Below, one piece after another: positions 1,573-54,554 of a stretch of DNA of 54,968 nucleotides; within the stretch, counting starts at the first letter, position 1, and each line of letters starts with the position of its first letter. The notes under the pieces are model-generated. The model was not told where the DNA came from and ran no database searches. It saw only the letters and a program-made list of their open reading frames with translations. The DNA lies in contig JBDRWI010000006.1 of assembly GCA_039802265.1 (NCBI GenBank), positions 1-54,968 of the forward strand, in the 5' to 3' direction. The translations under genes were made by a program, and so were the position numbers. Source of the DNA: a candidate division WOR-3 bacterium (GTDB lineage Bacteria > Hydrothermota > Tepidihabitantia > SM23-42 > JAOAFX01).

Positions 1573-1600
1573 TTGACAGATTTGTGAAACTCGTTATAAT
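1573..1600 (+). promoter_or_regulatory. sigma70-type promoter TTGACA-N16-TATAAT
   Basis: Perfect hexamers at 1573-1578 and 1595-1600. Confidence 0.75.
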
Positions 1601-1718
1601 TGACTATGAAGAGAAAGCAAAAGATAGTTCCTTAAAGAAAATAATGGCATCCCTTGAGCAATATGCTGAATTGATGCGTTTCAAAAGTAGGAATTACAAG
1701 TAAGACGAAAGGGACAAA

Positions 1719-2453
1719 ATGGGTATAGAGAAAGTTCAATCAAAAGGTACAGATTTCACGAAATGGCAACCCAATGAAGGTAAAAGGCTTATTATAGATG
1801 TGGATGGCGTTGATTATGCGAGGCTACCGATAAAGACCCATGTTATCACTGGCTCTGACGATATTTTTAAAGTCATTGCCCAGTATGTAATACCCCATAT
1901 TAAAAAGGATGATATAATCTTTTTGAGCGAAAGGGTGGTCGCCATAACCCAGGGTCGGGCATTTCCCATAAAGGATATAAAGCCTTCCTGGCTTGCCCGG
2001 TTTCTTGTAAGATTTGTCCACAAATCTCCCTATGGAATCGGTCTGGGTAGTCCCTGGACGATGGAACTGGCAATCCGGGAGGCTGGTGTAGCACGTATAC
2101 TCATTGCCGCATTTGTCTCGGCGATCACAAAACCATTCGGTATCAAAGGTCTATTCTATATTATTGCCGGAAAATCCGTCGCGGCGATTGATGGTCCCTG
2201 CCATTATACACTGCCTCCATATAATGAATATGCAAAATTGGGACCGAAGAATCCAGACAGGGTTGCCCGGGAATTGAAAAATAAATTTGGTTATGATTTT
2301 GTGATCATTGATGCGAATGACCTTGGTGTTTCTGTCTTAGGTAAATCAAGTAATATTATAACCGAAGATTTTTGTAAAAAGGTTTTTCGGGATAATCCAT
2401 TAGGTCAATCAAAACAGCAGACACCAATTGCAATTGTGAGGAAGGTATCTTAA
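1719..2453 (+). CDS. F420-0:gamma-glutamyl ligase (CofE-like) family protein
   Basis: 'LPIKTHVI...D.IFLSERVVAITQGR...AAIDG...P.NPD.VA...IIDANDLG...DNPLGQSKQQTPIAIVR' matches the F420_ligase family pattern. Confidence 0.75.
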   Translation: MGIEKVQSKGTDFTKWQPNEGKRLIIDVDGVDYARLPIKTHVITGSDDIFKVIAQYVIPHIKKDDIIFLSERVVAITQGRAFPIKDIKPSWLARFLVRFVHKSPYGIGLGSPWTMELAIREAGVARILIAAFVSAITKPFGIKGLFYIIAGKSVAAIDGPCHYTLPPYNEYAKLGPKNPDRVARELKNKFGYDFVIIDANDLGVSVLGKSSNIITEDFCKKVFRDNPLGQSKQQTPIAIVRKVS

Positions 2454-2456
2454 GAA

Positions 2457-4544
2457 TCAATACCCCTGCAATGCCGAGCGGTCAAGTTTTTCGAAGTCCT
2501 CTTCACCTTCTAACTTCGTCTCAAAGGTATGGACATCACAGGAGTCTTGAGGTTCGGTTCCCGCAACAAATGCCATCTCTTTTGGTGTGGGACAGAATTC
2601 GTTGGCTAAAAGACCGCTCTTGGGACATATCCTTCGCCAGACAATCCCTGAAGGCACCGGAAAGTCTTCATCCTTAAGTGTATCAATTTTTGAGATGATC
2701 TCTCCCCAGATTGGTGCGGAGACCACACCACCAGTTGCCCCCCTGAAGATTCTTTGATTATCATCAAAACCTACCCACACCCCGGCAGTAAAGTGGGGTG
2801 TAAATCCAATAAACCAGGCATCAGAATGGTTATCGGTTGTTCCGGTCTTGCCCGCTGCCGGACCACTGTAGTATTTTCTAATCTCATAACCGGTTCCACC
2901 ATCAACTACTGCCCGCATTATATCAATAAGGACATAGCTTGTCTGGGGAGATAACCTCTGTTCGGAAAAGGGTTTTGCCATCTCAATTATTGTGCCGTCT
3001 TTATCCGTAATTTTTCTTATCATCACCACTGGATGTTGTTCACCTAAATTGGCAATTGTACTGAAGGCATGTGTCAATTCCAGAAGGCTTGTCTCACAGG
3101 AACCCAACGCCAGTGATACAACGGGTAAGAGGGTTGATTTTATTCCTAAATTATGGGCATATTTCATGACCAGGTCGGGTCCGAGGATGCGAATTAATCT
3201 TACTGCCACGAGATTCCTGGATAGGGCCAATGCCTTTTTTAAGGTGATCGGACCCATAAAGCGGTGGTCATAATTTGATGGTCGGTAGATACTATCCCAA
3301 CCCGGTACCTCAAGGACAATGGGTAAATCAAGGACTATATCGGCAGGGGTAAATCCATTATCAAGGGCGGCAGCAAAGACAAAGACCTTAAAGGAACTTC
3401 CAGTCTGTCTCCTTGCCTGGGTTGCCCGGTTGAACTTACTCTGATTAAAATCCCGGCCGCCGACCATTGCCTTTATCTCACCGGTTTTTTGTTCAATTAT
3501 TACAATTGCACCCTGAAGATAAGGTGTCATATTCAGGGTATCAGGGATTCCCACAGAATCAACCTTTGATTTTGGATTTTTAAACTTGTAGTCCTTCTCA
3601 ATCTTTACCAGATGACTTTCCAATACATCCTCCGCAATCTTCTGGATATCCTGATTCAATGTAGTATAAATGCTTGCACCACTTCGATAGAGGAATTCCG
3701 GACCGTACTTTAACTCAAGGTATCTTCTAATTTCCTCAATAAAATACTCGCCCACTGTCCGCCTTGGCTGGCGCGCCGTAACATTGAGTGGTTCATTTAT
3801 CGCCTGATTGAACTGGTCTTCAGTTATGAGATGGTCCTTGAACATCTCCTTTAATACAAGATTACGCCGGGAAATAGCCCGTTCGGGATATCTAAATGGC
3901 GAAAGATTTTCCGGACTCTTGGGCAGGGCAATGAGCAGTGCCGATTCACTCAGGGTCAAGTCAGCAACCTCTTTATTGAAGTAATATCGGGCCGCAGTTG
4001 CTACACCATACCTTCCCTGTCCGAAGTTGACCTGATTCAGATATTTTTCAAGGATTTCATCCTTGGTATATGCCCGCTCAATTCTTATTGCCAAAATGAT
4101 CTCTTTGAGCTTCCGAAGGACAGTCTTTTCCTGGGTCAAAAACATATTCCGGGCAAGTTGCATCGTGATTGTGCTTCCACCCCGGACAACTCGCAGATGA
4201 ATTATATTTTCAATTACCGACCTTAGCAGGGACATAATGTTTACTCCCCAGTGTTTATAAAAGAGTTTGTCCTCAATACAGATAAAGCCCTGTTTTAAAT
4301 ATTCGGGCACCTCCTTTATACTGGCCAGGTCTCTTCTTTCAATAAAAAACTCGGTTAGGAGGCGGTTCTGGTCGTCATAAACCCGGGTTGAAATTGGCGG
4401 GGTATAGAATGAAATTGACTCCGCGGGTGGTAAATCCCTGAGCACTGAGATATATATTCCAAATCCAAGTCCACAAAGGAGTGATATAAAAAAGATTATA
4501 GACCAGCGTAGCCGGTGCCTTCTTATTCTCTTATTCAATGGCAT
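2457..4544 (-). CDS. mrcA: Class A penicillin-binding protein 1A (transglycosylase/transpeptidase)
   Basis: N-terminal TM helix; GT51 motifs EDKLFYKHWG, GGSTITMQLARN, RKLKE; transpeptidase motifs SSFK, SRN, KTGT. Start placed at ATG 4544. Confidence 0.92.
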   Translation of the reverse strand: MPLNKRIRRHRLRWSIIFFISLLCGLGFGIYISVLRDLPPAESISFYTPPISTRVYDDQNRLLTEFFIERRDLASIKEVPEYLKQGFICIEDKLFYKHWGVNIMSLLRSVIENIIHLRVVRGGSTITMQLARNMFLTQEKTVLRKLKEIILAIRIERAYTKDEILEKYLNQVNFGQGRYGVATAARYYFNKEVADLTLSESALLIALPKSPENLSPFRYPERAISRRNLVLKEMFKDHLITEDQFNQAINEPLNVTARQPRRTVGEYFIEEIRRYLELKYGPEFLYRSGASIYTTLNQDIQKIAEDVLESHLVKIEKDYKFKNPKSKVDSVGIPDTLNMTPYLQGAIVIIEQKTGEIKAMVGGRDFNQSKFNRATQARRQTGSSFKVFVFAAALDNGFTPADIVLDLPIVLEVPGWDSIYRPSNYDHRFMGPITLKKALALSRNLVAVRLIRILGPDLVMKYAHNLGIKSTLLPVVSLALGSCETSLLELTHAFSTIANLGEQHPVVMIRKITDKDGTIIEMAKPFSEQRLSPQTSYVLIDIMRAVVDGGTGYEIRKYYSGPAAGKTGTTDNHSDAWFIGFTPHFTAGVWVGFDDNQRIFRGATGGVVSAPIWGEIISKIDTLKDEDFPVPSGIVWRRICPKSGLLANEFCPTPKEMAFVAGTEPQDSCDVHTFETKLEGEEDFEKLDRSALQGY

Positions 4545-5605: not shown

Positions 5606-6436
5606 TTAATCAATCTTCTGGATTATCTTCAGGATTCTTATCAAGGTATTCCTTAAATCCTTTCTTGATACAAGCAGGTCAATCATACCGTGCTCTAACA
5701 TAAATTCGGCACGCTGAAATCCCGGGGGTAATTTTTCACCGATCGTCTGCTCAATAACCCGCGGACCGGTAAATCCAATCAATGCCCCGGGTTCGGCAAT
5801 AATGATATCGCCCAGTGAGGCATAGGAAGCCATTACCCCGGCCATTGTGGGATGGGTGAGGATTGATATATATGGAATTTTTGCCTTTGATAGAAGTGCC
5901 AATTCGGCAGCGGTCTTTGCCATCTGCATCAATGAGAAGATACCCTCCTGCATCCGGGCACCCCCGGAGGTAGAAAGGATTATCAGAGGGGTACGCTCCT
6001 GCCGGGCAAGTCTTATTGCCCGGGCGACCTTCTCTCCCACGACCGAGCCCATACTTCCACCCATAAACGAAAAATCCATTGCCCCGAAGACCACCGCAAC
6101 ATTACCAATCTTTGCCCGACCATACACTATCCCTTCGGTCAATTGGGTTTTTTGCTGGGCAAGTTTCAACTTTTTCTTATATTCCGGGAAGTCAAGGGGG
6201 TCGGTGGGTTCAAGGTCCTTATCTATTTCCTCTAAGTTACCCTCATCAAGTAAGAGGCGGATATATGCCCGACAACTGATTTGAAAATGGAAGTTGCACT
6301 TCGGACAGATATAAAGATTCTTTTCCAATTCCGTCCGGTAGAGTATCTCACCACAACTCTCACACTTTACCCATAAACCCTCAGGAAGGACGAGTTTTTC
6401 TTCGGGTTTTGCCTGGACCTTCTTCTTAAACCACAT
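5606..6436 (-). CDS. accD: Acetyl-CoA carboxylase carboxyltransferase beta subunit
   Basis: Zn ribbon WVKCESC...CPKC; DFSFMGGSMGSVVGEK; SGGARMQEG; GPRVIEQT. Confidence 0.96.
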   Translation of the reverse strand: MWFKKKVQAKPEEKLVLPEGLWVKCESCGEILYRTELEKNLYICPKCNFHFQISCRAYIRLLLDEGNLEEIDKDLEPTDPLDFPEYKKKLKLAQQKTQLTEGIVYGRAKIGNVAVVFGAMDFSFMGGSMGSVVGEKVARAIRLARQERTPLIILSTSGGARMQEGIFSLMQMAKTAAELALLSKAKIPYISILTHPTMAGVMASYASLGDIIIAEPGALIGFTGPRVIEQTIGEKLPPGFQRAEFMLEHGMIDLLVSRKDLRNTLIRILKIIQKID

Positions 6437-6457
6437 AGCTACCTCCAGATAATATCC

Positions 6458-7450
6458 TCATAACAATTCCGCAATCTGGACCGCATTCAGCGCTGCCCCC
6501 TTTCTCAGGTTGTCTGCAACAATCCACATCGTAAGGCCATTTTCTAAGGCAAGACACTTTCTTATGCGCCCAACGAATACCTCATCTTGACCCGCAACAT
6601 AAACCGGCATTGGATACTTGTCTTCATCTTCAATCAACTTTACACCCGGGGCACCTTTTAGAATCTCTTTTGCTTCCTCCAAAGGGATGGGCCTTTCAAA
6701 TTCCACCGATACTGCCTCACTGTGGCAATAAAAAACTGGAATTCGCACACAGGTCGCACTCACCATAATTGACTGGTCATCAAGAATCTTTCTCGTTTCA
6801 TTGAGCATCTTTGTCTCTTCAGTGGTATATCCTGATTCACAAAATCTACCAATCTGGGGAATTATATTGTTGGCGATGGGATGAACAAAGACACTATTTG
6901 GGGATTTTACAATTTTCTCCTGGGCAGCAAGACATTCAATCTCATAATTCAACTCTTCAATCGCCTCTTTGCCGTAGCCTGAGACCGACTGATAGGTGGC
7001 AACAATGATTCGTTTTATCCTTGCAACCTTATGGAGTGGAAAGAGCGGAACAAGGAGTTGAATCGTTGAGCAATTGGGATTGGCAATAATTCCCTTATGC
7101 CTTTTTATTTCTTCAGGGTTGATTTCAGGGATAACCAGCGGGACATCCGGTTCCAGACGAAATGCAGGTGAGTTGTCTATTATCACGGAATTATTTCTAA
7201 GATCGGGGACGATTTCTTTGGTGAGTTCCTCGTCAAGACAGCCAAAGACGAGGTCAACCTTATTGACAAGTTCTTTGTAATCTGAAAGCACATCAATCTC
7301 TCTATCCTTGAAGATAAATCTCAGTCCCTCGCTCTTTTCCGAGGCAAATAGAAATAGTTCCTGGACAGGAAAGTTTCTTTCTTCAAGAATCTTTATCACC
7401 TCCTGCCCCACCAAGCCAGTCGCGCCTAAAATCAAGATATTCTTCTTCAT
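6458..7450 (-). CDS. asd: Aspartate-semialdehyde dehydrogenase
   Basis: GATGLVG; IANPNCSTIQ; TYQSVSG; DNLRKGAALNAVQIAE. Confidence 0.96.
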   Translation of the reverse strand: MKKNILILGATGLVGQEVIKILEERNFPVQELFLFASEKSEGLRFIFKDREIDVLSDYKELVNKVDLVFGCLDEELTKEIVPDLRNNSVIIDNSPAFRLEPDVPLVIPEINPEEIKRHKGIIANPNCSTIQLLVPLFPLHKVARIKRIIVATYQSVSGYGKEAIEELNYEIECLAAQEKIVKSPNSVFVHPIANNIIPQIGRFCESGYTTEETKMLNETRKILDDQSIMVSATCVRIPVFYCHSEAVSVEFERPIPLEEAKEILKGAPGVKLIEDEDKYPMPVYVAGQDEVFVGRIRKCLALENGLTMWIVADNLRKGAALNAVQIAELL

Positions 7451-7458
7451 AATTAAAT

Positions 7459-7487
7459 ATTATATATAACTAATAAGCGATAGTCAA
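7459..7487 (-). promoter_or_regulatory. asd promoter TTGACT-N17-TATAAT, 8 nt before the ATG
   Basis: Reverse complement of 7459-7487; no SD before the ATG. Confidence 0.65.
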
Positions 7488-7692
7488 GCCCAATAGGGAG
7501 TTCAATTTCCCAGGATTAAGTGAGGGTAATAAAAGATCCCTGAATAATCAACCTTGCCGTAGGGTCGGGATATATTCATTATTTCGGTTATTTAGGGCTT
7601 AGTAAATTTTTTAAAATACCCGAATTTCTGATTCTTTCCAATATTGCTAATTTAATTTTCACAAAGTGAGATGACCAATTTTTTTCAGATTA

Positions 7693-7720
7693 TTGACATT
7701 GACTCCATTATAGATATAAT
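7693..7720 (+). promoter_or_regulatory. tRNA promoter TTGACA-N16-TATAAT
   Basis: Perfect hexamers, ending 11 nt upstream of the tRNA 5' end. Confidence 0.8.
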
Positions 7721-7731
7721 TAACAATAAAT

Positions 7732-7806
7732 CGGGGCGTGGCGCAGTTGGTTTAGCGCACCAGCTTGGGGTGCTGGGGGTCACCAGTTCAAATCTGGTCG
7801 CCCCGA
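7732..7806 (+). tRNA. tRNA-Pro(GGG); CCA not encoded
   Basis: Acceptor stem CGGGGCG/CGCCCCG; D arm GCGC-AGTTGGTTTA-GCGC; anticodon arm CCAGC-TTGGGGT-GCTGG; T loop GTTCAAAT. Confidence 0.96.
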
Positions 7807-7987
7807 ACTTTTTCTCCAAATTCTAAATCCGAAGCACCGGAGATCTGCCCGTCGTATTAATGGCTTGTTGTTCCTATTTTACGAGCAACGGCAAGCGATT
7901 GACGATTTGCTTTTCTAAAAAGACAAACAATGACAATTCTATCCAATTCATTGGATTTATCCAGGCAATAGTGAGGGTTATGTTCAT

Positions 7988-9247
7988 ATGCCATTATTTT
8001 TGATCTTTGCCCAGATTGTTGTCAATAGTGAAAGGGTTATTAAAATTGATTATGAAAATCTATTTTATGAAGAATTGCAATTAAAAGATGAGATTATCGA
8101 TTATTGTCTTTATGACAATTTATATGTCTTGACCGGACGCTACATTCGGTGCATAGATACCACAGATCTAAAAATTATTGACCGAACTCCGCTCCCCCAA
8201 AAGTTTAATTACCTAACAGTAAGCAGCGACGAAATCTTCCTTATATCTTCCAATGAAATCGTCAAACTCAACAGAAATAACCTTTCATTTAGAGGAGGTA
8301 TTGGCATTGAACCCGGCGATTATCGACCGATGCTTTCTCCCTTCCTTTTGCCTGATGATAACCGAATATATCTCATCACCCATAGTGAAAAAAAGAGTGT
8401 CATAAAGGTTTTTGACACCAGTAATGGAAAAAAGATTGGCTCCGCAACCTTCGCCCGCATCCTTGATCTCAAATACCTCCCTGAAAAAAAGATCTTTGCT
8501 ACAATGGATAATTCTGGAATCAATCTGATTGATTTGAAATTGAAGAATAGAAAAAAGATAAAACTTCCATTTGTGGGCGATAATCTTTTTATTGATAGAT
8601 GTGGATATATAATAACAAATCAACAGGGAATATTTTATCTGAATAATGGCGGCAGGATGATCGATTTTCAACCCCTCTGTCTTAAGGGAGAAATCCAAAA
8701 TGATAATTTAGTCTTTTTAAATAGTGATATTATTGGCTTCATTGACCCCTTTACCTTAAGGATTAAAAAAGCAGTAGAAAACAAAGAAGGAATAAAGAAT
8801 ATCCAGGGTATTGATAAGTATTATTATCTGTCAGTAAATGAAAGCGGCGAACTATTCTTAGTTGATGCTATAAAATCCGAGGTCAGACGTTTAATGAAAA
8901 AAGAAAAGGTCAGTGCCCTTATTATAAAGGGCAATAGACCTGAATTAGATTCACTCTTTTATATCCAACTGAGCGCCTTTTCCGATGAAAAAAGAGCCAA
9001 GATTTTCTGCGAGAGTATAATAATGACCGGTTTACCAGTATTTATTGATTCGAGTACGGACAATCTCTATCGTGTAAAAATTGGAGGTTTTTACAGTAAA
9101 GAGGAGGCACTGGAGATATCTGAAGGGATTGATATCCCCAACTGGATTATTTATCATCATAAAATTGATTATGAGATTGATTCAGTATTTAAGTTTAAGG
9201 ATAAAAGTTTTTATATCCATAAAGGAATAATCAAAAAAAAGGAGTGA
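7988..9247 (+). CDS. Exported protein with a C-terminal SPOR (peptidoglycan-binding) domain
   Basis: '[14 protein letters not shown]...[15 protein letters not shown]' is a SPOR signature; the N-terminal region is beta-rich. Confidence 0.7.
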
Positions 9248-9249
9248 AG

Positions 9250-9630
9250 ATGAAAAAAATTATCAATACCGAGAACGCCCCAAAGGCAATTGGACCATAT
9301 TCCCAGGCGGTGGTAGAAGAAAACTTTATATTCACAGCCGGGCAGATCGGAATCAGCCCAGATACCGGAAATATAATAGAAGGCGGGATAACCGAACAGA
9401 CCGAGCAGGTATTGAAGAATCTCCGGGCTATTCTGAATGCGGCAGGTGCTGATTTAAAGAATGTAGTAAAGACAACCGTTTATCTAACAAGGTCTGATGA
9501 CTTCCCCCTGATGAATGAAATCTACGCCCATTATTTCTCTGACCAACCACCTGCCCGGACAACCGTCTTTGTAAGCGGTTTACCAAAAGGAGCACTCGTT
9601 GAGATTGAGGCAATCGCAAAGGTTGGTTGA
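9250..9630 (+). CDS. ridA: RidA/YjgF/UK114 enamine deaminase
   Basis: [47 protein letters not shown] precedes ATG 9250. Confidence 0.93.
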
Positions 9631-10279
9631 ATTTGAAAAAAAGGTCGGGGTTAAGTTCAAAAAGAAGGGGTTATTAAAACTTGCCCTAACCCACTCTTCT
9701 CTTGCCCACCGAGCAGGCGGGAAGTCAAATGAAAACTTGGAATTTTTAGGAGATGCGGTACTGGAGCTGGCAGTGCGCGAATACCTCTACAAGAAGTACC
9801 CCCAGAAAGACGAAGGAGAATTGAATCAGTTGAAAAAGAAATATACCAGTGAGGAATCATTGTACCGGATTGGCAAAAGAATCAAGATTGGCGATTTTCT
9901 CTTTATGGACCACGGTGAGGAACTAACCGGGGGAAGGAAAAGACCATCCAACATAAGTTCCGCAATTGAGGCATTGATCGGGGCAATCTTTCTTGACCGC
10001 GGCTGGAAGTATACCCGAAGGTTTATTAATCATTTGATACTACAAAGAAGATTGATAATGCCCGAGGACTACAAATCTATTTTGAACCAATGGGCAATGA
10101 GCGAAAAAAAGATAATAGTCTATAAAATAATTGAAGAGAAAGGATTGCCCCATAGTAAAATCTTCCAGATTGGTCTTTGGGTAGATAATAAGCTGGTTGC
10201 CACCGGAATGGGCACTACTAAGAAAAAAGCCGAGCAGGAGGCAGCGCGTGTCTTCTTAACGCAGATGGGTGTACTATAA
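9623..10279 (+). CDS. rnc: Ribonuclease III
   Basis: [29 protein letters not shown]-terminal dsRBD '[11 protein letters not shown]'. Start is uncertain (TTG 9623). Confidence 0.93.
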
Positions 10280-10282
10280 AAA

Positions 10283-12139
10283 TTATTCTATTATTACAAA
10301 TTTTTTCGTCCGGTCTTGATATCTTAAAAAATAGACCCCGGCCGCGGATGGTCTATAATTCAGATAATCGGCCTTCCATTCATCCAGTAAACGGCCCGTA
10401 ACATCAAAGACTTTTATAATTTGTTTATCTTTTAACCTCAAGATTATTCTTCGCGCAACACTCGTTGTCAAATCGGTTTGGGTATGTGCGCTGGACAGCT
10501 CAAATACCGGTGTAACGATATTCTTCTGGATTATCCAGTTCTGGGGGTCAACTACAACCTGCATGGGTTCTTGAGTTAATAGAAATTCAAAGTGCTGGGG
10601 TGAGGAATCAATTGCGAGGGTCAGGATTGTATCACCCGCCGAAAAATTAATACCCAGAGGTAAAGGCATATGGAAGACCGCCGGTCCTATCGTCTGAATC
10701 TGGGTAATGTCTAAAATCAGGCGCCAGTTGGGTGACTCATAAATTTTATTCCACAGGATACTGTAATAGGGATAGCCCATCTGATAGACCCACTCATCAA
10801 AGAACCAGGTATAATCTCCATTCAAAACCTGATTGGTTATTCTCTTTAAATCATCGGTTGAGGCATTCTTATAGGCAAATGAATCACGGTAAGTTGATAA
10901 GAGATTCAACCATACACTATCATTACTACAGAGATATCTAATCATATGCAGGACCCAACTGCCCTTACAATAACTGTGCCCCCAGGAAAAGATTTGATTA
11001 GGTGGTGGGTCGTAGATTGGATGCGGATTTGATGCCTCGGCTGAGAAATAGGCATTTCTGCGCCCAAGCATGGTATTTATGAATACCTGATGTCCCTCCC
11101 GCTTTTCAAGATATAATGCATCACAATATGTGGCAAATCCTTCATTCAGCCAGACATTTGCCCAGCCAAAACAGGTAATCATATCGCCCCACCACTGATG
11201 GGAAAGTTCATGCGCCATTCCATAAAAATTACCCTGAATTATCCACTGCCGTAAAATTGTACTCGTTGTCTGGTGTTCCATACCTCCGTAATAAAACGGT
11301 GAAACCACATCCATCCCGTATCTTTCAAAGGGATACGCACCAAATAGTGAATCATAGAATTCAAGCATATCCGTGGTCAGGGAGAAGGCATTTGTGGTAT
11401 AGACAGAGTCTTCGGGCCAGAAATAGTATTTTATCTCTAAGCTTTCATCTGGTGCTGAATGATACCAATCCGAATATGTGGTAAAGATACTTGATGCAAA
11501 GTGAATCAAGTAAGGGGAAATTGGATAGTTATGGCGCCAGTGATATGTTGCATAACCCTGCTGGACGGTCTTTCCTAAAAATTCACCCGTGGCGCAGACA
11601 GTAAAAGATTCGGGAACAGTAATATAAAATTCCACACCGTAATCTGCCTTATCCCACAATGCATCATAACAGGGCAACCAGTTCTTTTCGGCAAATGGAC
11701 AGCCTAAGGTGTAAGAAATTGGATGGAGGCTCTGATACCACAGATACCCCATGCTGCCGGTTGCGGTGCCGCTATAACCGACCATTACATTGAATGAATC
11801 CCCTTGATTATAGACCTGGGGAAGGTTTATCCAGAGGGTCTCACCAATATGATTGTAAGTTGCCATAATTCCATCTACCCTCACCGAGTCAACACCAAGT
11901 CCCAAAAGATATAAATCAATCCGATTTAAATTATTGATATTGCTTCGCATTGCAATAGTTACTGCACCGGAAAGATACCGAGAATTCATCGGCAGGTCAA
12001 GGTCAATAAGATAATGAAGGACATTATAGGAATGGGTTGACTCGGCACGCACCGGTTTCGGATAAAAAACCTGCTTATTTTCAAATTCCACTGGAATTTG
12101 AAAGAATAACGCTAACTGAAAGTAAATTATAAAATTCAT
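10283..12139 (-). CDS. Secreted M1 family aminopeptidase with short CTD
   Basis: GGMEH; HELSH-x18-E (WLNEGFATY); tail 'KVFDVTGRL...AGVYFL...KKFVII'. Confidence 0.9.
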   Translation of the reverse strand: MNFIIYFQLALFFQIPVEFENKQVFYPKPVRAESTHSYNVLHYLIDLDLPMNSRYLSGAVTIAMRSNINNLNRIDLYLLGLGVDSVRVDGIMATYNHIGETLWINLPQVYNQGDSFNVMVGYSGTATGSMGYLWYQSLHPISYTLGCPFAEKNWLPCYDALWDKADYGVEFYITVPESFTVCATGEFLGKTVQQGYATYHWRHNYPISPYLIHFASSIFTTYSDWYHSAPDESLEIKYYFWPEDSVYTTNAFSLTTDMLEFYDSLFGAYPFERYGMDVVSPFYYGGMEHQTTSTILRQWIIQGNFYGMAHELSHQWWGDMITCFGWANVWLNEGFATYCDALYLEKREGHQVFINTMLGRRNAYFSAEASNPHPIYDPPPNQIFSWGHSYCKGSWVLHMIRYLCSNDSVWLNLLSTYRDSFAYKNASTDDLKRITNQVLNGDYTWFFDEWVYQMGYPYYSILWNKIYESPNWRLILDITQIQTIGPAVFHMPLPLGINFSAGDTILTLAIDSSPQHFEFLLTQEPMQVVVDPQNWIIQKNIVTPVFELSSAHTQTDLTTSVARRIILRLKDKQIIKVFDVTGRLLDEWKADYLNYRPSAAGVYFLRYQDRTKKFVIIE

Positions 12140-12147
12140 AACTACCT

Positions 12148-12975
12148 CTATTTACTACACATTACTAAAATCAGCTCCCGGAGTATATCAGCGACAGTTG
12201 AACCCGATGCCCATGGCGATGTGGCAAGCGGGTTAAATTCAACAATATCCGCACCGATTATCTTTTTGACCCTGAAAAGTAAGAGGGCTTCAATGAGCTC
12301 CCGGAAGGAAATTCCGCCGGGTTCGGGTGTAGCAACTGCTGGGCATTGACTGGGGTCAAGGACATCAACATCAATTGTTAGATAGAACGGCTCCGGTATT
12401 TGATCCAGAATTTTCTTTAAGGGTCTATAGACTTCAAATGGATAGAGATTTTTATTCAATTTGAACTCCTCTTCAGTACCCGAGCGTATTCCAAATTGAT
12501 AAATGTGCTTCAAATCAATTATATCGGCAACTCTACGGATTGCGGTGGCGTGGCAGACTCTTTCACCGTGTAGTTCATCACGCAAATCTGCATGGGCATC
12601 AAAATGGATAATCGAAAATTTTTTCACCAGACTTTTTATCCCCTTTATGACCGGGAAGGTGATGGTGTGTTCACCACCGAGGAAGACTGCGGTCTTTTTC
12701 TTCTGGTAGATTTTAAAGACCTCTCTTTCTATTTCTTTCTGGTAATCTTCGGTAGTGAATTCATAATCGCCAAGGTCACAGATTCTGTTTGAATCGAGCG
12801 AACGATTTTGATATGGTGAGAACCATTCAATATTCTCCGTGCAGATTCTGATATAGCGCGGGCCCAATCTTGAACCAGGGATAAAAGACGATGTCCGGTC
12901 ATAGGGTATCCCCATAATTACAATCTGGGCATTTTTAAAGGATGCATTTGCATATTCTATTTTTCCCAGGGTCAT
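12148..12975 (-). CDS. speB: Agmatinase
   Basis: GSRLGP; GGEHT; HFDAHADLR; DVDVLDP; TPEPGG. Confidence 0.9.
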   Translation of the reverse strand: MTLGKIEYANASFKNAQIVIMGIPYDRTSSFIPGSRLGPRYIRICTENIEWFSPYQNRSLDSNRICDLGDYEFTTEDYQKEIEREVFKIYQKKKTAVFLGGEHTITFPVIKGIKSLVKKFSIIHFDAHADLRDELHGERVCHATAIRRVADIIDLKHIYQFGIRSGTEEEFKLNKNLYPFEVYRPLKKILDQIPEPFYLTIDVDVLDPSQCPAVATPEPGGISFRELIEALLLFRVKKIIGADIVEFNPLATSPWASGSTVADILRELILVMCSK

Positions 12976-12980
12976 TTTAT

Positions 12981-13727: not shown

Positions 13728-14020
13728 AGGTCCTTGATCAATTCCAGAAATCGCTTATATGGTATTGCGGTCCAGGATTCAGCGGCAACTGCACCGCCGG
13801 AAAGGCTTATCATTGAGACCTTGGCCGCGGTCTCTTCATTAGGTGCCTCATAGATATCTAAAAAATCATAGGGACCGAGCAAGGCATAATGGGCAAGGAA
13901 TTTTACCTCCGGGCAGTCCCTTTTCACTCGCTCCATCCATTGGCGACCGATTTCCGCCCTTTTTTTGAGGTCCTTGGTCAATTCTGGAGATAGTTTTGTA
14001 ACCAGGATATATGTTGCCAT
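13724..14020 (-). CDS. GYD domain protein
   Basis: MATYILVTKL...YALLGPYDFLDIYEAPNEETA; SD GGAGG before ATG 14020 (alternative ATG at 14032). Confidence 0.85.
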   Translation of the reverse strand: MATYILVTKLSPELTKDLKKRAEIGRQWMERVKRDCPEVKFLAHYALLGPYDFLDIYEAPNEETAAKVSMISLSGGAVAAESWTAIPYKRFLELIKDL

Positions 14021-14039
14021 TTTTGCCTCCATTAAAATA

Positions 14040-14067
14040 ATTATAGTCTAAAATTTGTGAAAGTCAA
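14040..14067 (-). promoter_or_regulatory. Promoter TTGACT-N16-TATAAT
   Basis: Reverse-complement hexamers at 14062-14067 and 14040-14045. Confidence 0.7.
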
Positions 14068-14072
14068 CAATA

Positions 14073-17185: not shown

Positions 17186-17202
17186 ATATTTTGAGGAGAG
17201 GT

Positions 17203-18177: not shown

Positions 18178-18187
18178 AGTTCATTGG

Positions 18188-20867: not shown

Positions 20868-20873
20868 AAGTCT

Positions 20874-20901
20874 ATTATATAATAATCCGTTGAGTTGTCA
20901 A
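20874..20901 (-). promoter_or_regulatory. Promoter TTGACA-N16-TATAAT, 6 nt before the ATG (leaderless)
   Basis: Reverse complement reads ttgaca-actcaacggattatta-tataat-agactt-ATG. Confidence 0.8.
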
Positions 20902-21674: not shown

Positions 21675-21675
21675 A

Positions 21676-22239: not shown

Positions 22240-22283
22240 AGGATACCCTCATTTTATTCCCGGATTTATCCCGGCTTGTTCCA

Positions 22284-23030: not shown

Positions 23031-23047
23031 ATCATCTCCTTTGTTAA

Positions 23048-23147
23048 ATTATATTTTAAAATTTTTAAAAATCAAGCCTTCAATCAGTTAAAATCAAGAT
23101 ATTCCTAATTAGAAATTTATTGACTTATCTTCAGTAATTGATATAAT
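23048..23147. promoter_or_regulatory. Divergent promoters: TTGATT-N16-TATAAT (-, 23075-23048) and TTGACT-N16-TATAAT (+, 23120-23147, 5 nt before the galE ATG)
   Basis: Hexamers read directly on each strand. Confidence 0.75.
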
Positions 23148-26820: not shown

Positions 26821-26848
26821 TTGACAGATTAAATATTCAGACTATAAT
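26821..26848 (+). promoter_or_regulatory. Promoter TTGACA-N16-TATAAT
   Basis: Perfect hexamers followed by SD AGGAGG and ATG 26874. Confidence 0.8.
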
Positions 26849-27713: not shown

Positions 27714-27842
27714 GAGAATTATTGACGGCCGGTGATTGACTTTAAATTGATTAAGGATAAAATATAGGTTGTGTAAAATCAATCCGCTCCAGTGAAAGAC
27801 TTGAGTATGAATAAATATAAAACTGATAGACAAGGGGGAAAT

Positions 27843-35996: not shown

Positions 35997-36050
35997 AGAT
36001 ACCTCCGTGCTTATGATAAATTATATTTAATAGATAGCACCTGTCAATAC

Positions 36051-37136: not shown

Positions 37137-37234
37137 ATTATATCTGAACCTATTAACAAATCAAGTAGTAAGCAAAATTATTGCGAATAATTCAGGTTAA
37201 AAGGTATTGACTCTAAAGGCATCCTGTTTATAAT
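37137..37234. promoter_or_regulatory. Divergent promoters: TTGATT-N16-TATAAT (-, 37164-37137, 6 nt before the ATG) and TTGACT-N16-TATAAT (+, 37207-37234)
   Basis: Hexamers read directly on each strand. Confidence 0.75.
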
Positions 37235-38512: not shown

Positions 38513-38989
38513 ATGCGCATCGGAGTCATTTACTATTCAGTTACGGGCACAACCGAAGAATTTGCCCGTAGGATTTATAATGGTTTAATTAAAGAGAAAC
38601 ACCAGGTTGAACTTATCAAGATAAAAACAGATAAACCGATTACTGTACCGAGACAGGATTTTAAGATAACGAATGAACTCGATTTTGCCGGATTTGATCT
38701 GATATTATTTGGCGGACCCGTATGGGCTTTTTCTGCCTGCCCGGTTATTATGGAGGCAATAAAAAAATCAAAAAATCTCTCGGGTAAAAAGGTCGTGCCA
38801 TTTGTAACAATGGGTTTTCCGCTAAAATTTTTGGGTGGTACTCAAGCAATAAGAAAAATTACAAGGGCAGTAGCCGAGATGGGCGGAGATGTCTTGCCTG
38901 GCATTATCATCCCCAAGTTGTTCCATGACTTTAAAGCCCTTATGGATAAATCGGTCCGAGAATTGATTTCTTCTATTGAAACTCCTTGA
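38513..38989 (+). CDS. Flavodoxin-family protein
   Basis: YYSVTGTTEEFA; FDLILFGGPVWAF; GKKV..FVT.G. Confidence 0.85.
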   Translation: MRIGVIYYSVTGTTEEFARRIYNGLIKEKHQVELIKIKTDKPITVPRQDFKITNELDFAGFDLILFGGPVWAFSACPVIMEAIKKSKNLSGKKVVPFVTMGFPLKFLGGTQAIRKITRAVAEMGGDVLPGIIIPKLFHDFKALMDKSVRELISSIETP

Positions 38990-39019
38990 CCGCGATAAGA
39001 TTTTATTTATAATAAACCG

Positions 39020-40263: not shown

Positions 40264-40482
40264 AATGCGCAAAATTCTTTCCAGATTTCTCTCCTGTATT
40301 TATAATATATTCCAAATCGGTAATAAAATCCTTTTCTTCAGATAACCTGATACTACATATTAGTTGCAATCTTACTTCCTTTCAAATATTTCAACATGTT
40401 AGAACGGCAAAAAGCGCTTGATTTTATTACAGGTATTTATATAATATACCAGAAAATATTACATTCAAATAAAGGAGCAGGT

Positions 40483-42496: not shown

Positions 42497-42524
42497 TTGA
42501 CTTTCAAAAATTTTTTTATATAAT
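42497..42524 (+). promoter_or_regulatory. Promoter TTGACT-N16-TATAAT for the Gld-like ABC operon
   Basis: Hexamers at 42497-42502 and 42519-42524. Confidence 0.75.
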
Positions 42525-43626: not shown

Positions 43627-45749
43627 CCGGTAAGATAATTAAAAAAGAATTAAATGGTTATTTTAATTCACCAATCGCCTATATAATACTAATTCTCTTT
43701 GTCGGAATTTCAGGCTGGTTCTTTGTTCAGGATTTATTCCTCGGTGGACAGGCGGATATAATTGGTTTTGTTAATATCGTGCCAATCTTGTTTCTATTAT
43801 TAATACCTGGAATATGCATGCGATTAATTGCTGAAGAACGAAGCAGGGGGACGATTGAGATTCTTGCTACATTGCCCCTGACGGACCAGAATGTAATATT
43901 AGGGAAATGGCTTTCTGCATTCATTTTGATTGCCATAGGAATTTTAGTAACCCTCATCTTCCCCTTAATTGCCTCATTCTTAGGAAATCTTGACTGGGGT
44001 GTGGTCGTTACCAGTTTCATTGGACTACTGCTTTTTGCCCTCTTTTTTGCCAGTATTGGTACATTTGCCTCTTCAATAGCCCAGACTCAAATTGTTGCCT
44101 TTATCCTCGGCATCTTTATCTCTTTCTTCTTTTTCATTATCGGCAAGGTTCTTTTTATCATCCCAACAGGACTTGTGCCATTATTTAATTATTTAGGAAT
44201 TGATTCCCATCTGACCAACATTACTCGCGGAATTCTTGATTCAAGGGATATTATTTATTTCCTTTCCCTCTCTCTTTTGTTTATTTACGGTGCATTCTAT
44301 TTTTACACCCGAATAAAGGAACGTCTACTCAAAACGACCCAGTGGATTTTAATACTGGTCATTGTGATTTTAGGCAACATCATCCTGAACCGTCTCTTCT
44401 TCCGGCTTGACCTTACCCAGGGCAATATATATTCTCTTACTAAGGCATCTTCAAAGATACTCAGGGAACTTCCGGATAATGTAGTAATCAAGGCATATAT
44501 CACAAGCAAACTCCCCTTTCCCTATAATACCCGTGCCCAGTATGTTACCGATTTACTCAATGAATATCGTCAGAAATCCCATGGTAAGATTCGGTTTGAA
44601 CATATTGACCCTGTAAGCCGGGAACAGATGATGGATGCCCAGCGCGCGGGAATTATACCTTTACAATTTACTGAGGTAAAACAGGGTGAATTGGGTGTAA
44701 AGCAGGGCTTTATGGGACTTCTCTTTTTGTTTGAAGATAAAAGGGAAGTGATTCCGGTTATTGAAGACTTAGCTAATCTGGAATATGATATTACATCACG
44801 GATTAAGAAACTCACTGAAGAGAAGTCTAAGACTATTGGATTTACTACAAATCACAGTGAAATTGAACTGGCGGAAAACTTAAGGACAAAAATTAGTGAA
44901 CGATATACAATAAAAGAAATCAATCTAAAAGATACACTGCCGATTATTTGTGATGCAATGATAATTGCGGGACCAAAGAACGACTTTGATACAACAGAAA
45001 CGAAGAAACTTTTGGAATATATAAATAATAAAGGACCGATCGGTATATTCCTTGATCGCTTCAACATAAACCTGGAGTTTTTCTTGTCTTTTCCTTTAAA
45101 ACTTCCCAATCTTGATGCACTGCTGAGTAAAATCGGGTTAAACATTGAGCAGGGTATGGTAATGGATAGAAATAATGAAGTACTGGTGATGCGCAGTCAG
45201 CATGGGATGTTCGTGATGCAGAATTATATTCCATATCCATATTTCCCCAAAATCACGGACCTCTCAAAGACCCACCCCATTACCAAGGATTTTGAGGCGA
45301 TTGTTCTACCATTTGCAAGTCCGGTATCTGGTGGTGAAGAACTTGCGCGCACCTCAAAGGCATCCTGGTTGAGAAGTTCGCCCCAGTCCTTGAATCCGCT
45401 TGACCAGCAGAGATTCCTTCCTTTCCAGTTGCCGTTTGACAAGCAGGGACCATTCAATATGATGAGTTTTCTTGCCAGTGATAAGAGATTGGTAGTTGTG
45501 GGTACGTCAAGGTTTGTTGACAGTCAGTTTTTAAGCGGTGGGGGTATTGCCCTTTTTATGAATATCTTAGATTGGCTCACCCAGGATGAGGCATTGATTT
45601 CCATTCGTTCCAAGGTTGTAACAGATCGACCAATAAAAGAGATTAGTAAGGGGACAAAGACATTCATTACCTGGCTTTCCCCAATTTTACCTTCTATCAT
45701 ATTTGTTGTATTCGGAATAATCAGATGGCAAATTAGAAAGAGGAGGTAA
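43623..45749 (+). CDS. GldF-GldG-like fused ABC permease/auxiliary protein
   Basis: KEL..YFNSPIAY; MR..AEE...GT.E.L.TLP; RG.LDSRD..YF; RLDLT....YSL; LEY..T..I; N..DWL. Confidence 0.85.
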   Translation: MTGKIIKKELNGYFNSPIAYIILILFVGISGWFFVQDLFLGGQADIIGFVNIVPILFLLLIPGICMRLIAEERSRGTIEILATLPLTDQNVILGKWLSAFILIAIGILVTLIFPLIASFLGNLDWGVVVTSFIGLLLFALFFASIGTFASSIAQTQIVAFILGIFISFFFFIIGKVLFIIPTGLVPLFNYLGIDSHLTNITRGILDSRDIIYFLSLSLLFIYGAFYFYTRIKERLLKTTQWILILVIVILGNIILNRLFFRLDLTQGNIYSLTKASSKILRELPDNVVIKAYITSKLPFPYNTRAQYVTDLLNEYRQKSHGKIRFEHIDPVSREQMMDAQRAGIIPLQFTEVKQGELGVKQGFMGLLFLFEDKREVIPVIEDLANLEYDITSRIKKLTEEKSKTIGFTTNHSEIELAENLRTKISERYTIKEINLKDTLPIICDAMIIAGPKNDFDTTETKKLLEYINNKGPIGIFLDRFNINLEFFLSFPLKLPNLDALLSKIGLNIEQGMVMDRNNEVLVMRSQHGMFVMQNYIPYPYFPKITDLSKTHPITKDFEAIVLPFASPVSGGEELARTSKASWLRSSPQSLNPLDQQRFLPFQLPFDKQGPFNMMSFLASDKRLVVVGTSRFVDSQFLSGGGIALFMNILDWLTQDEALISIRSKVVTDRPIKEISKGTKTFITWLSPILPSIIFVVFGIIRWQIRKRR

Positions 45750-47928: not shown

Positions 47929-47956
47929 TTGAAAAAGGGCAAATTTTGATTATACT
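47929..47956 (+). promoter_or_regulatory. Promoter TTGAAA-N16-TATACT upstream of the intron
   Basis: Followed by SD AAGGAG and ATG immediately before the intron 5' end. Confidence 0.55.
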
Positions 47957-47996: not shown

Positions 47997-48879
47997 GTGC
48001 GCCGAGCAAAGTTCAATCTAATGAAGGAGCCTGTCCTGATGAAAATCAGGATTAGCAACCGCATTAGTAGCAAACTCTGCATAGTGGGAGGCAACGAATA
48101 CTATGAAGCCAGTGAGAACAAGATACCGAGCCACAATCCGCAAGTTCATCCTGTTAGATACAAGTTATCGGATAGGGTGAACCCTGAAGGATATTTATTA
48201 TCTAACAGGGTGAAGGGATTGAGCCCAGCACTTTCATATGGTTTGATAGTGATTTATAACAATTTATTTTTTACATTTTGCGATGCATTGAACTCATCGG
48301 CGATGCGCGAGTCAGAAAGTGCTGGGTCTGAGACCGTGGCGAGTTATCAAATGGAGAGGCTGGGAACCTGGGAGAGCCATAATGTTCCTGAAAAGGTATG
48401 GGTTGCAGGACAGGCGAGTATCGCCTACAAGCCTGAAGAAGGCGAGGCAATCCAGATGACATTATGGCAGTCGGATAAGCCCATAGTAGCGAGGAAGCAG
48501 AGTAATGTCTGTGGCGCGAAGGGGCTTACGGGAAGACCGTTTGGAAGGGGACACAACCGCCAGGCTCAGAACTGGAGAACGGTTGTCAACAAAACCTATC
48601 CAATAACTTGTTGTATAGGAATTTGAAAAATTCCTATACAATGGTAATGAAATTTTTCATTAAAGTTAAAAAAACCACAAGATATTCAGGGGAGGATGAT
48701 ATGAAAATGGTCTCCGCACAAAGAGACGGTTTGCTATATAGCGGGGGTTTTCAGGGGGTATCCCCCTGAATATCTTGCTATAGTGAGCAAGGAGGTCTTT
48801 CTGAAGAGCCGTGTGGGGGAAACCTACAAGCACGGTTCTGTGAGGGGGTAGGGGAGTAATCCCCTACCCCTACCTCAAC
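47997..48879 (+). mobile_element. ORF-less group II intron (or two intron fragments); no reverse transcriptase
   Basis: 5' GTGCG at 47997; DIII-like 'CAGTCGGATAAGCCCATAGTAGCGAGGAAG...GCGAAGGGGCTT'; DV GAGCCGTGT...GCACGGTTC (48806-48838) with AGC triad; DVI 11-bp stem, bulged A at 48872, terminal AC; candidate EBS1 TCATAT (48234) pairs with exon GTATGA. Confidence 0.88.
48145..48214. repeat. REP-like inverted repeat inserted in intron domain I
   Basis: TTCATCCTGTTAGATA (48145-48160) and TATCTAACAGGGTGAA (48199-48214), 15/16 complementary. Confidence 0.7.
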
Positions 48880-48901: not shown

Positions 48902-49002
48902 GTTTGATTAAACAACCCCTTTTCGGTAAGATTATTTTTGATTTAAATCGTGCGCTTGACTTATTTGAAAAAGTTTATATAATTGTATTGTAATGAATTA
49001 CT

Positions 49003-50261: not shown

Positions 50262-51500
50262 TTCGGAAATTGAGTAATTTTTAGTTTATCTCCCCTTTGG
50301 GGAATTGGTCTTTGACAACTTAATTTGATTACATCGCCCGCTTCCTGCCGAACTCAAACGAAAACATACTTAAATGGCTACATATACCCTCATTCTATAA
50401 ATACCACTTCTCGTTAAAGTAAATGCTCCATTAAAAAGCTCAAATGCCCCTACTCATCTTAATATCAAAACCTGATAAAGATGATAATCCCTTAAGCCGC
50501 CGAATACGGACTCAAGCGGACTTCCTCAATCGCCGCAAATCTCTTACCACCTTCACCTGGGCAATCCGCCGACCGACCTCACCAAGACAACACAAAAGCA
50601 CAAACAAACGAACCTTCACCAAACGCCGAAAATAAAAATTCTTCATCCCCCGATTGTTCTTCAAAATGCCATTCTCCGCCTCAATCCGCGCACGCTTTTT
50701 AGCATACTCCTCCTTCCACGATTTCCTGCTACTCACCACAATCCCCTGCAACCGATAATTGCTATCATCACCAATATAAAAACTACGACCATATTTACCA
50801 CGATTACACAATGGGGCAAAAAGACAATCACCACCACTAACCGCAATCGGACAACGATACTTCACACGCCTACGCCTCCTCTCCTCTCCCCAATAAACCA
50901 ATCTCCGACCACTTAAACAACACAAATATCCTTCTTTATCAAGATAGAGATTCTGATTAAGAGAAGGATTCTCTTTGCCGCGGGTATTAATAGCGATATA
51001 TGGCTTTGCCTCTAAATCTTTTAAGACCTTCTCAAAATTTTCATTAGCATCAAAGCCCGCATCACCAAAGACTTTCGTCACCTTAATTGTGGGATGATGC
51101 GCTTGAAGTTGGTCAATTACCTTATGGAATTGAGGCGATTCACTCTGGTTGCCCGGGACGACTGCTACCGCAATCGGGAAGATCGGTTCTTTAACACTGA
51201 CCAGAAGAATCACCTTATAGCCGAAGAATGAGAAGGTCTGGCGTTTGAATCCCCATTGGGCTTCTGGGTCGTGGGGTTGGGCGCAGAGGTGTGTGCCATC
51301 TATGGCGATTTCAATCTGTTTAATTCGGGCAAGGGTGAAGAGTTGTGCCACAAGATTATGGAAGATTTTAAGGATTCGTTCATCCGGGATTAGTTTTTGA
51401 TTGATGAAATCGGAGATGGTTTTGACATTTGTCTCCTTTGTGTAGTATTATACATAAAATGACGGAAAATGCGGTGTTTTGGAATTTCCGAACACCCACT
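50262..51500 (-). mobile_element. Insertion sequence copy 1 (DDE, IS5/IS1182-like), internally deleted
   Basis: Terminal IR AGTGGGTGTTCGGAAATT (reverse complement of 51483-51500); 50262-50667 is near-identical to 54563-54968. Confidence 0.85.
50512..51428 (-). pseudogene. DDE transposase lacking its N-terminal domain
   Basis: IDGT; DPEAQWG; FFGYK; PGN..E; GDAGFD; R.RIE..NG.LK. The SD-led ATG at 51428 is out of frame with the body (77 nt from GTG 51351). Confidence 0.8.
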
Positions 51501-54042: not shown

Positions 54043-54082
54043 AAAGAGCAGAGACAAGATGCAAGAAATAGGAAACAAGAAA

Positions 54083-54102
54083 GGGCGGGCTTGGTCCCGC
54101 CC
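54083..54102. terminator. GC-rich hairpin between convergent genes
   Basis: GGGCGGG-CTTGGT-CCCGCCC; T-rich tail on the minus strand. Confidence 0.55.
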
Positions 54103-54177
54103 GATAATAGAAAAGGTCTTAATCTATTCTGTGGAGCAGGATATTTAACGATTTATTTATAAATGGATAGCCCTTAA

Positions 54178-54504
54178 TCAGCGGCTTGTGCGAATCAATT
54201 CTCTGGTCTTTTCACCATCAGCCGCAATAAGGCTGCAAATATAACTAATCAATTCTCTCGTTTCCCGCCTTCCTTCTTCAATCATTTCTTTTGTTTCACG
54301 CCTTCCTTCCTGAATCATCCTTTCTACCCGCTCAGCATCTTTATCAAGGGAGTCATGCATTTCTTTAATCAATTCTTTTGCCCGTGCATCCTCTTTCTCA
54401 ATTAATCGGTCAGTCCTTTTGCTTAAACTAATTGCAAAGATTATTCCTAACGCTGCAATAACAACACTCAAAAATCCCAATATTATTCCAAATATCATTT
54501 CCAT
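54178..54504 (-). CDS. Small N-terminally anchored coiled-coil protein
   Basis: TM; tandem MIQEGRRETKE/MIEEGRRETRE; promoter TTGACT-N16-TAAAAT (54537-54510) 5 nt before the ATG. Confidence 0.7.
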   Translation of the reverse strand: MEMIFGIILGFLSVVIAALGIIFAISLSKRTDRLIEKEDARAKELIKEMHDSLDKDAERVERMIQEGRRETKEMIEEGRRETRELISYICSLIAADGEKTRELIRTSR

Positions 54505-54554
54505 ATCCTATTTTATCCAGAATTCATTAAAAGTCAAATGTTTTGTTAAAGCAA

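Follow-up and report, generated by a model that had tools for sequence, protein, structure and literature searches.

Promoter spacers of 16 bp in a candidate division WOR-3 bacterium and its relatives

The promoters on the stretch of DNA analysed here raise the question of whether a bacterial lineage can hold its -35 and -10 hexamers at a spacing other than the familiar 17 bp, and what would set that spacing. The stretch, called the window below, has 54,968 nucleotides and is contig C6 of G000, the source genome of a candidate division WOR-3 bacterium (2.30 Mb, 89% complete). A sequence-only reading had listed 17 promoters with 16 bp between the hexamers and had ascribed them to a shifted optimum of the primary sigma factor or RNA polymerase, or to the DNA topology of the lineage. 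We write Nk for k bp between the hexamers, call TTGACA-Nk-TATAAT a perfect site, and label genomes Gnnn and families fn. It is probable, in our view, that the intrinsic spacer optimum of the holoenzyme is 16 bp, one shorter than that of Escherichia coli.

Spacer lengths in the window, the genome and the phylum

TTGAnn-N16-TAnAnT was present, exactly as written, at every one of the 17 listed coordinates, and the single strong 17-bp exception was the asd promoter at 7487 (-), as had been reported. The whole window held 21 matches to this pattern, against 4.3 ± 2.0 (maximum 10) in 200 dinucleotide shuffles. When at least 11 of the 12 consensus matches were required, 12 window sites had N16, one each had N17, N18 and N19, and none had N15; at a threshold of 10/12 the numbers for N15 to N19 were 4, 19, 5, 3 and 3.

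Genome-wide, G000 contained 180 perfect sites at N16 and 18 at N17, with 0–5 at each other length between 10 and 25 (2 at N18). The mode of the scan was 16, and a 17-bp mode was not seen. The same preference was obtained with TTGAC.-TATAAT (304 at N16 vs 31 at N17), with TTGA..-TA.AAT (576 vs 120, background 78–128), and when only one box was anchored (446 at 16 vs 119 at 17 from TATAAT; 477 vs 74 from TTGAC). The excess at N16 was tied to TTGA.. -35 boxes and was absent for TTGC, TTGT and TTGG, and among the -10 variants the N16 peak was strongest for TATAAT, followed by TAAAAT, TAGAAT and TATACT. The density of perfect sites was unusually high (78 per Mb). The spacer had been called almost invariant; the strong N16 mode is real, but the proportion is about 9 in 10 (180 of the 205 perfect sites at N14–N20).

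To describe the spread of this preference, we used 40 genomes, G000 included, that all lie inside the source order, and a phylum set of 221 genomes in which perfect sites were tallied at N16 and N17 and summed by hand. The comparison genomes all came from one phylum. Each of the 40 order genomes had 105–271 perfect N16 sites. Within the order, all 25 genomes counted had more perfect sites at N16 than at N17 (4,666 vs 550 sites, 4.7–19-fold), as did 78 of 81 genomes of the class; the N16 mode thus recurs in related genomes across the order and most of the class. In the other classes, N16 exceeded N17 in 56 of 140 genomes, with the reverse in 75 and 9 ties. The strictest 16-type lineage was f13 (G228, 139 vs 4). 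Its mirror image within the same phylum was f25, with 24 sites at N16 and 1,466 at N17 in 8 genomes; f18, f27, f29, f32, f36, f40, f41 and f42 were likewise 17-type, at low density. Families f14, f23, f31, f34, f37 and f39 had almost no perfect sites at 16 or 17; their promoters may be spaced differently or have a degenerate -35 box.

In the RpoD tree, the class formed one clade (100/99). The 17-type f25 was placed, without firm support (95/75), beside f26 and f28, which lean to 16, and the spacer preference has thus changed more than once in the phylum. Relatives that share their hexamers have switched between strict 16 and strict 17, which points to the machinery as the thing that differs. 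The proposal of a lineage-shifted optimum thus holds as far as the mode shift itself is concerned, which is genome- and lineage-wide and involves sites upstream of genes; a cause at the level of the enzyme is the best interpretation that these comparisons suggest.

Two further kinds of N17 promoter were noticed in other families. Eight f19 genomes (G046, G053, G059, G077, G082, G111, G121 and G131) share a recurring one whose -35 box is an arm of the palindrome TTGACAG-n4-CTGTCAA, likely the site of an autoregulated repressor. In G105 (f32), several N17 promoters carry poly-C tracts of 7–9 nt in the spacer, which are candidates for a phase-variation switch.

Promoter function and the -16 region

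Only 2 of the 180 perfect N16 sites in G000 lay deep in genes, and 144 were located at most 300 nt 5' of an open reading frame (ORF) on the same strand, as judged with a crude ORF call. A site with at least 10 of 12 matches was found in the upstream 90 nt of 26 of the 40 tRNA genes and was missing from 14; these 26 sites comprised 21 with N16, 2 with N17, one tie between 16 and 18, one with N19 and one with N20. The rRNA operon has a perfect N16 promoter. The description of the window sites as housekeeping promoters was only partly appropriate: most genes behind them are not housekeeping genes, and the case for housekeeping use is carried by promoters of tRNA and rRNA genes in other parts of the genome.

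The 5' ends of tRNAs were at least 8 nt downstream of N16 sites, and the first ATG to begin a frame of 80 codons or more lay 5–8 nt past the -10 box at 116 of 370 N16 sites and 0–4 nt past it at 9. By these proxies, the -10 box appears to keep its usual distance to RNA and ATG starts, and the edge of the ATG distribution at 5–8 nt would follow from a normal start distance combined with frequent leaderless mRNAs. The discriminator was AT-rich (mean G+C 0.27 in the six nucleotides 3' of the -10 box, 382 sites), C was enriched and T depleted just 5' of the -35 box, and an A/T-tract occupied the 3' half of the spacer. An RNA run (X3) gave 0 reads on window positions 6001–26000, and its reads at the rRNA locus fell solely within the 16S gene, with 0 on the leader.

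These sites are likely ordinary promoters of the primary sigma factor, RpoD, with canonical boxes, to judge from their composition and placement. They share with the canonical sigma70/sigmaA promoters of E. coli and Bacillus subtilis the hexamers, the enrichment of C and depletion of T before the -35 box, the spacer A/T-tract, a colinear group 1 sigma factor and, as the ATG and tRNA proxies suggest, probably a start 5–8 nt past the -10 box. The mode is 17 in the canonical systems and 16 (about 90%) here. A spacer of 17 bp predominates across 49 species with mapped transcription start sites, and the model used there was trained on E. coli and carries its 17-bp energy (Kuo et al. 2025, PMC12641261); individual species with a mode of 16 could be among these 49 and would appear in Supplementary Fig. 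S3B of that article. Early promoter collections had 50% of spacers at 17 and 20% at 16 (Hook-Barnard and Hinton 2007, PMC2613000). In the literature covered, which left out most subscription papers, neither a lineage with a mode of 16 nor any account of WOR-3 promoters was found.

A second feature distinguishes these promoters. In G000, T occupied -16 in 78% and G occupied -15 in 47% of the sites, and a T-purine (TR) step was placed at -16/-15 in 204 of 382 sites, compared with 29–68 at each other position. TG was found at -16/-15 vs -15/-14 in 138 vs 23 of the 382 sites of G000 and in 81 vs 5 sites of G228, and the corresponding numbers in three f25 genomes were 4–7 vs 185–198. The f25 promoters are textbook TRTGn elements, with TR at -17/-16 in 258 of 375, 241 of 342 and 217 of 308 sites. 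The step in G000 is therefore one base nearer to the -10 box than in f25. The sites resemble sigma70 promoters but lack the 17-bp mode that marks the canonical class and the TG at -15/-14 that marks the extended -10 class. When the position of TG before TATAAT was tested independently of the -35 box, no clear peak was obtained.

Counted from the -35 box, the profiles coincide. T was present at spacer position 13 in 75% of the N17 sites of f25 (G107, 400 kb, n = 64), 79% of the N16 sites of f13 (G228, 296 kb, n = 38) and 78% of those of G000 (n = 418), and a purine was present at position 14 in 95%, 87% and 69%, respectively. G228 additionally had T at position 15 (74%) and a purine at position 16 (79%), directly abutting TATAAT. 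The simplest reading of this coincidence is a canonical spacer minus its last base; on this reading, the change lies in the interval from the -16-region contacts to the -10 box. The step also stayed at -16/-15 in the N17 minority of four of five genomes of the order (19:4, 13:6, 15:10 and 10:6). The extended -10 or -16 region (TRTGn-TATAAT) is described as being read by V454, H455, E458 and R441/R451 (Bae 2015, PMC4593229; Singh 2011, PMC3130263). The present step is like that element in its place at spacer positions 13–14 from the -35 box, as in f25 with the full canonical element, and differs in lying at -16/-15 instead of -17/-16, in the lack of enrichment of TG at -15/-14 (23/382), and in the replacement of V454 by A or S and of E458 by D in the source class. 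According to Hook-Barnard and Hinton (2007, PMC2613000), evidence that -17/-16 is contacted directly in E. coli is lacking, and R451 has been tied to DNA shape near -18 (Singh 2011, PMC3130263); for these reasons, the TR step is perhaps read through shape.

Several observations concern transcript starts and leaders. About one third of the strong G000 promoters (116/370) likely give leaderless mRNAs; a short distance from the -10 box to the ATG was also seen in G228 (5–7 nt at 15 of 38 sites) and rarely in G107 of f25 (3 of 64). At L008 (G000:C98:6309 onward), 3' of the rRNA promoter, there is a second TTGACA...TATAAT pair with 11 nt between the boxes, mostly an A-run; either a homopolymer has collapsed here or the pair is a degenerate second promoter, both being possibilities. 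The core ACCATACCAGC, followed by letters like ATCCAAACC, characterises a short dispersed repeat rich in C and A, with 9 core matches in G000. It lies 30–60 nt 5' of several tRNA genes that have no consensus promoter within 90 nt (for example, G000:C18:25405, C20:20259, C31:9058 and C37:18243), and could act as a leader or in processing, or be a repeat like the repetitive extragenic palindromic (REP) type.

The sigma factor and the explanations for the shift

RpoD of G000 (G000:C90) is a group 1 sigma factor with canonical regions 2.4 and 4.2, which would be the protein that reads the N16 sites. Its regions 2–4 align without gaps to solved SigA/RpoD proteins (residues 343–517 correspond to E. 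coli 438–612, equal length). In the alignments of 67 RpoD proteins (from 69 loci among those listed, 2 of which were not extracted) and of a second set of 74, no indel in regions 2–4 tracked the spacer type, and the RpoB flap of 39 genomes had no indel or residue that followed it. The sequence-only reading had placed the change in sigma region 4 and the beta flap and had called for a search for indels in RpoD regions 3.2–4 and the RpoB flap; none follows the spacer type, and the sequence signals instead implicate region 3.0 of sigma together with the -16 region.

In region 3.0 of G000, A359 corresponds to E. coli V454 and D363 to E458. The pattern P-[A/S]-H-[I/V]-x-D was found in 30 of 30 class members aligned. 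When 32 16-type and 26 17-type genomes were compared column by column, together with mixed ones, V/I454 and E458 were kept in all 26 of the 17-type and lost in 26 of the 32 16-type genomes. Families f20 and f21 and genome G075, which lie outside the class, have other non-canonical forms of region 3.0 and also lean to 16. The equivalents of H455, R441 and R451 are conserved in G000. V454 and E458 were reported to be 100% identical in 1,002 primary sigma factors and to provide contacts for -15T and the -14 pair (Bae 2015, PMC4593229).

The following mechanism would fit these results. Sigma4 would still read TTGACA, sigma2 would still read TATAAT, and transcription would start at the normal distance. 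The missing base would then likely lie between the contact with the -16 region (the sigma2–sigma3 linker, region 3.0 and the beta-prime zipper) and the -10 box, and the promoter would be the canonical TTGACA-...-TRTGn-TATAAT spacer without its last base. The shorter A and D side chains likely allow region 3.0 to sit one step nearer to the -10 box, with loss of the classical TG readout. We propose tentatively that the change is located at the sigma2–sigma3 junction and not at sigma4 or the flap. The more specific proposal, that the class re-tuned its housekeeping holoenzyme to a 16-bp ruler through two "invariant" residues of region 3.0, sliding the -16-region contact toward the -10 box, is doubtful. 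In Bacteroides thetaiotaomicron, the primary sigma factor and the promoter plan have likewise diverged together (Kuo 2025, PMC12641261); there the hexamers themselves changed, whereas here the hexamers are canonical and the spacing and the -16 region moved.

A number of results weigh against an enzyme retuned through region 3.0. Six of the 32 16-type genomes (in f16, f19, f26 and f28) retain V/E, which indicates that the region 3.0 change is not the sole cause, and the probable sister of f25, f26 plus f28, leans to 16 with a canonical region 3.0. Conversely, A/S and D also occur in six class members of mixed type (N16 fraction 0.48–0.63), which indicates that the change is not sufficient for the strict shift. 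Kin are not independent, and the class-wide residue change is one event. The TR step at -16/-15 was clearly enriched solely in the source order, f12 and f13 (27–73%); in the other 35 of 45 genomes (f4–f11 and other classes) it amounted to 6–32%, mostly near the roughly estimated chance level of ~17%. G113 and G093 had no such motif in the samples taken. The TR step accompanies the strictest 16-type lineages and not every 16-leaning one. The N17 minority of G016 has the opposite register (6:19), and G228 and G000 share A/D yet differ at -14/-13. The support consists of sequence comparison. Moreover, E. coli promoters with consensus hexamers were on average as strong with 16 bp as with 17 bp in one library (Klein 2021, PMC8695583), and a canonical enzyme can therefore use such promoters.

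This last point leads to the alternative that survives best, although we regard it as unlikely: the enzyme is canonical with an optimum of 17, and selection has paired near-perfect hexamers with a slightly suboptimal 16-bp spacer, so that open complexes remain unstable enough to permit promoter escape or regulation, as at the rRNA and tRNA promoters of E. coli. The 16-nt spacers of E. coli stable-RNA promoters (Forquet 2022, PMC9303308), the finding that over-tight binding can brake transcription in E. coli, where 16-bp consensus promoters are strong (Klein 2021, PMC8695583), and the unusual density of perfect sites in G000 are consistent with such detuning. However, f25 has equally perfect hexamers and TRTG at N17 at a similar density, which indicates that a perfect consensus needs no detuning in general, and N18 is not used as an equivalent. 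The stringent rRNA and tRNA promoters described by Forquet (2022, PMC9303308) share the 16-bp spacer with the rRNA and most tRNA promoters here, but their discriminator is G/C-rich, whereas that of G000 is AT-rich (27% G+C) and N16 is the genome-wide norm, protein genes included. Detuning would also leave the region 3.0 changes and the shifted TR step unexplained.

Quite unlikely is a second alternative, in which the spacing is dictated by an accessory factor, an alternative sigma factor or another change in the core enzyme (the beta-prime zinc domain or the sigma 4.1 anchor), with region 3.0 playing no causal part. It would account for the 16-leaning families with a canonical region 3.0, and G000 does encode a second sigma-70-family protein of 284 aa and five shorter ones of extracytoplasmic function (ECF) size. 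However, a second sigma factor of similar size was found in 16-type as well as 17-type genomes. The hexamers match the RpoD consensus exactly, regions 2.4 and 4.2 of RpoD are canonical, and the tRNA and rRNA genes use these promoters. A search for CarD domains (RID query, 5 genomes) gave only Mfd-sized ORFs, in 4 of the 5. A further point in its favour is RpoD position 438 (E. coli 533, at the start of region 4.1), which is non-acidic in 32 of 32 16-type genomes, whereas 18 of 26 17-type genomes and the five solved sigma factors shown have an acidic residue there; with eight 17-type exceptions and a scan of ~240 columns over few independent clades behind it, this position can serve as a lead only. 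The version of this alternative that invokes the core polymerase overlaps with a holoenzyme optimum of 16 bp.

Other parts of the polymerase were considered as candidates. RpoD position 418 (sigma finger, E. coli 513) is acidic in 31 of 32 16-type and in 0 of 26 17-type genomes, and it was rejected as a general cause since five solved 17-type sigma factors shown are acidic like the 16-type. Among 30 genomes, the N-terminus of RpoC had no indel following the spacer type, the RpoC zipper was conserved, and one K/G column in the zinc-domain/zipper region mostly followed the class. That column was dropped because E. coli and B. subtilis presumably share the basic residue of the 16-type there. The single-sequence AlphaFold model of RpoD regions 2–4 was too poor for use (pLDDT 51). 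In G047 (f20) and in G063 and G085 (f21), RpoD region 2.4–3.0 is strongly divergent on long branches, with the equivalents of R441, R451 or E458 altered, and TTGACA/TATAAT promoters persist.

The sequence-only reading had also offered DNA topology, which was not supported. More tightly wound DNA (relaxed or positively supercoiled) would give the same angle between the -35 and -10 boxes with 16 bp, and short spacers are predicted by a twist model to gain on relaxation; 16-nt spacers are, however, a stated exception to that model (both Forquet 2022, PMC9303308). Near-identical DNA is present in a hot-spring metagenome, perhaps the sample from which this genome came, and such an origin would suit this explanation. 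Nevertheless, gyrA and gyrB are present in G000, gyrB in 77 of 80 genomes, 16-type and 17-type alike (8 of 8 in f25), and gyrA also in G015, G228 and three of five f25 genomes. Reverse gyrase scored above the threshold in 13 of 67 genomes. Nine of these are 17-type and none belongs to the source order or f25, contrary to what this explanation predicts. Topology is an unlikely cause, with a very small chance of being correct, as far as gene presence, which does not measure supercoiling, can indicate. An apparent loss of gyrA in f25 was not upheld, as shown by the three f25 genomes with the gene.

Explanations that invoke random matches in AT-rich DNA, repeats of one family or faulty assembly are already refuted: although the first sites were picked by eye in AT-rich intergenic DNA, the shuffle control, the flat background at other lengths, reversed-pattern controls (0–3 per strand), the diversity of the spacer sequences and the agreement of independent assemblies of 39 relatives all stand against them.

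The 17-bp optimum has been treated as near-universal, and an order with a mode of 16 contradicts that rule. Given that a strict-16 order, a strict-17 family and graded intermediates with identical hexamers occur in one phylum, the promoter ruler could be tested by a few sigma swaps, for which the residues at E. coli positions 454, 458, 444 and 533 are candidates. If the proposed mechanism is true, spacer length would be set at the sigma2–sigma3 junction too and not by sigma4 on the beta flap alone, and a few residues might suffice to create an orthogonal 16-bp promoter system. Programs for predicting promoters or start sites will misjudge these genomes if they penalise a 16-bp spacer, and the signature of N16 with T-16/G-15 could prospectively aid the assignment of hosts to phages and plasmids.

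Promoters and other features of the window

The promoters of the window are summarized in Table 1, including one N16 site beyond those first listed.

Table 1. Promoters of the window, with positions of the whole site from hexamer to hexamer.
Site	Position	Strand	Context
Perfect TTGACA-N16-TATAAT	1573..1600	+	5' of ORF 1719-2453
Minority N17, TTGACT-N17-TATAAT	7459..7487	-	asd ATG 8 nt past -10 box
Perfect N16, tRNA-Pro(GGG)	7693..7720	+	tRNA begins 10 nt past -10 box
N16, ORF 13724-14032	14040..14067	-	
Perfect N16	20874..20901	-	ATG (20867) of ORF 19146-20867 6 nt past -10 box; likely leaderless mRNA
N16, ORF 22284-23030	23048..23075	-	Back to back with 23120 promoter
N16	23120..23147	+	NAD-dependent epimerase-like gene, ATG (23153) 5 nt past -10 box; likely leaderless
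Perfect N16, type IX secretion system (T9SS) type A sorting domain gene	26821..26848	+	Followed by GGAGG and ATG
N16, TTGACT/TAAAAT	27736..27763	+	5' of ORF 27792-28607
Perfect N16, ORF 34485-35996	36020..36047	-	
N16	37137..37164	-	ATG (37130) of ORF 36051-37130 6 nt past -10 box; likely leaderless; divergent with 37207
N16, radical SAM/SPASM gene	37207..37234	+	
N16	38986..39013	+	ATG of ORF 39020-39469 6 nt past -10 box; likely leaderless
N16, ArsR/SmtB-like regulator gene	40418..40445	+	True start probably a later ATG behind AAGGAG
N16, GldA/GldF/GldG-like ABC transporter operon	42497..42524	+	Upstream of operon
Extra N16 beyond first list, TTGACA/TATGAT, 11/12	45436..45463	+	Inside ORF 43623-45749, ~290 nt before ORF 45756
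N16, TTGAAA/TATACT	47929..47956	+	5' of ORF 47997-48626
N16	48956..48983	+	Just 3' of group II intron domain V/VI match
N16	54510..54537	-	ATG (54504) of ORF 54178-54504 5 nt past -10 box; likely leaderless

Back-to-back pairs of N16 promoters numbered 27 in G000, with -35 boxes 4–122 nt apart; two of them are in the window (23075/23120 and 37164/37207). The match to group II intron domain V/VI (RF00029, 49.3 bits) spans 48804–48873, just 5' of the 48956 promoter. An IS1182-like transposase fragment, the C-terminal half, lies at 50512–51351 (-), with TTGACA-N18-TATTAT at 51422 just outside it. The regions 321–1457, 26763–27713, 34485–35996 and 42703–45749 encode several proteins with C-terminal domains like the T9SS type A sorting domain and the GldA/GldF/GldG-like ABC transporter.

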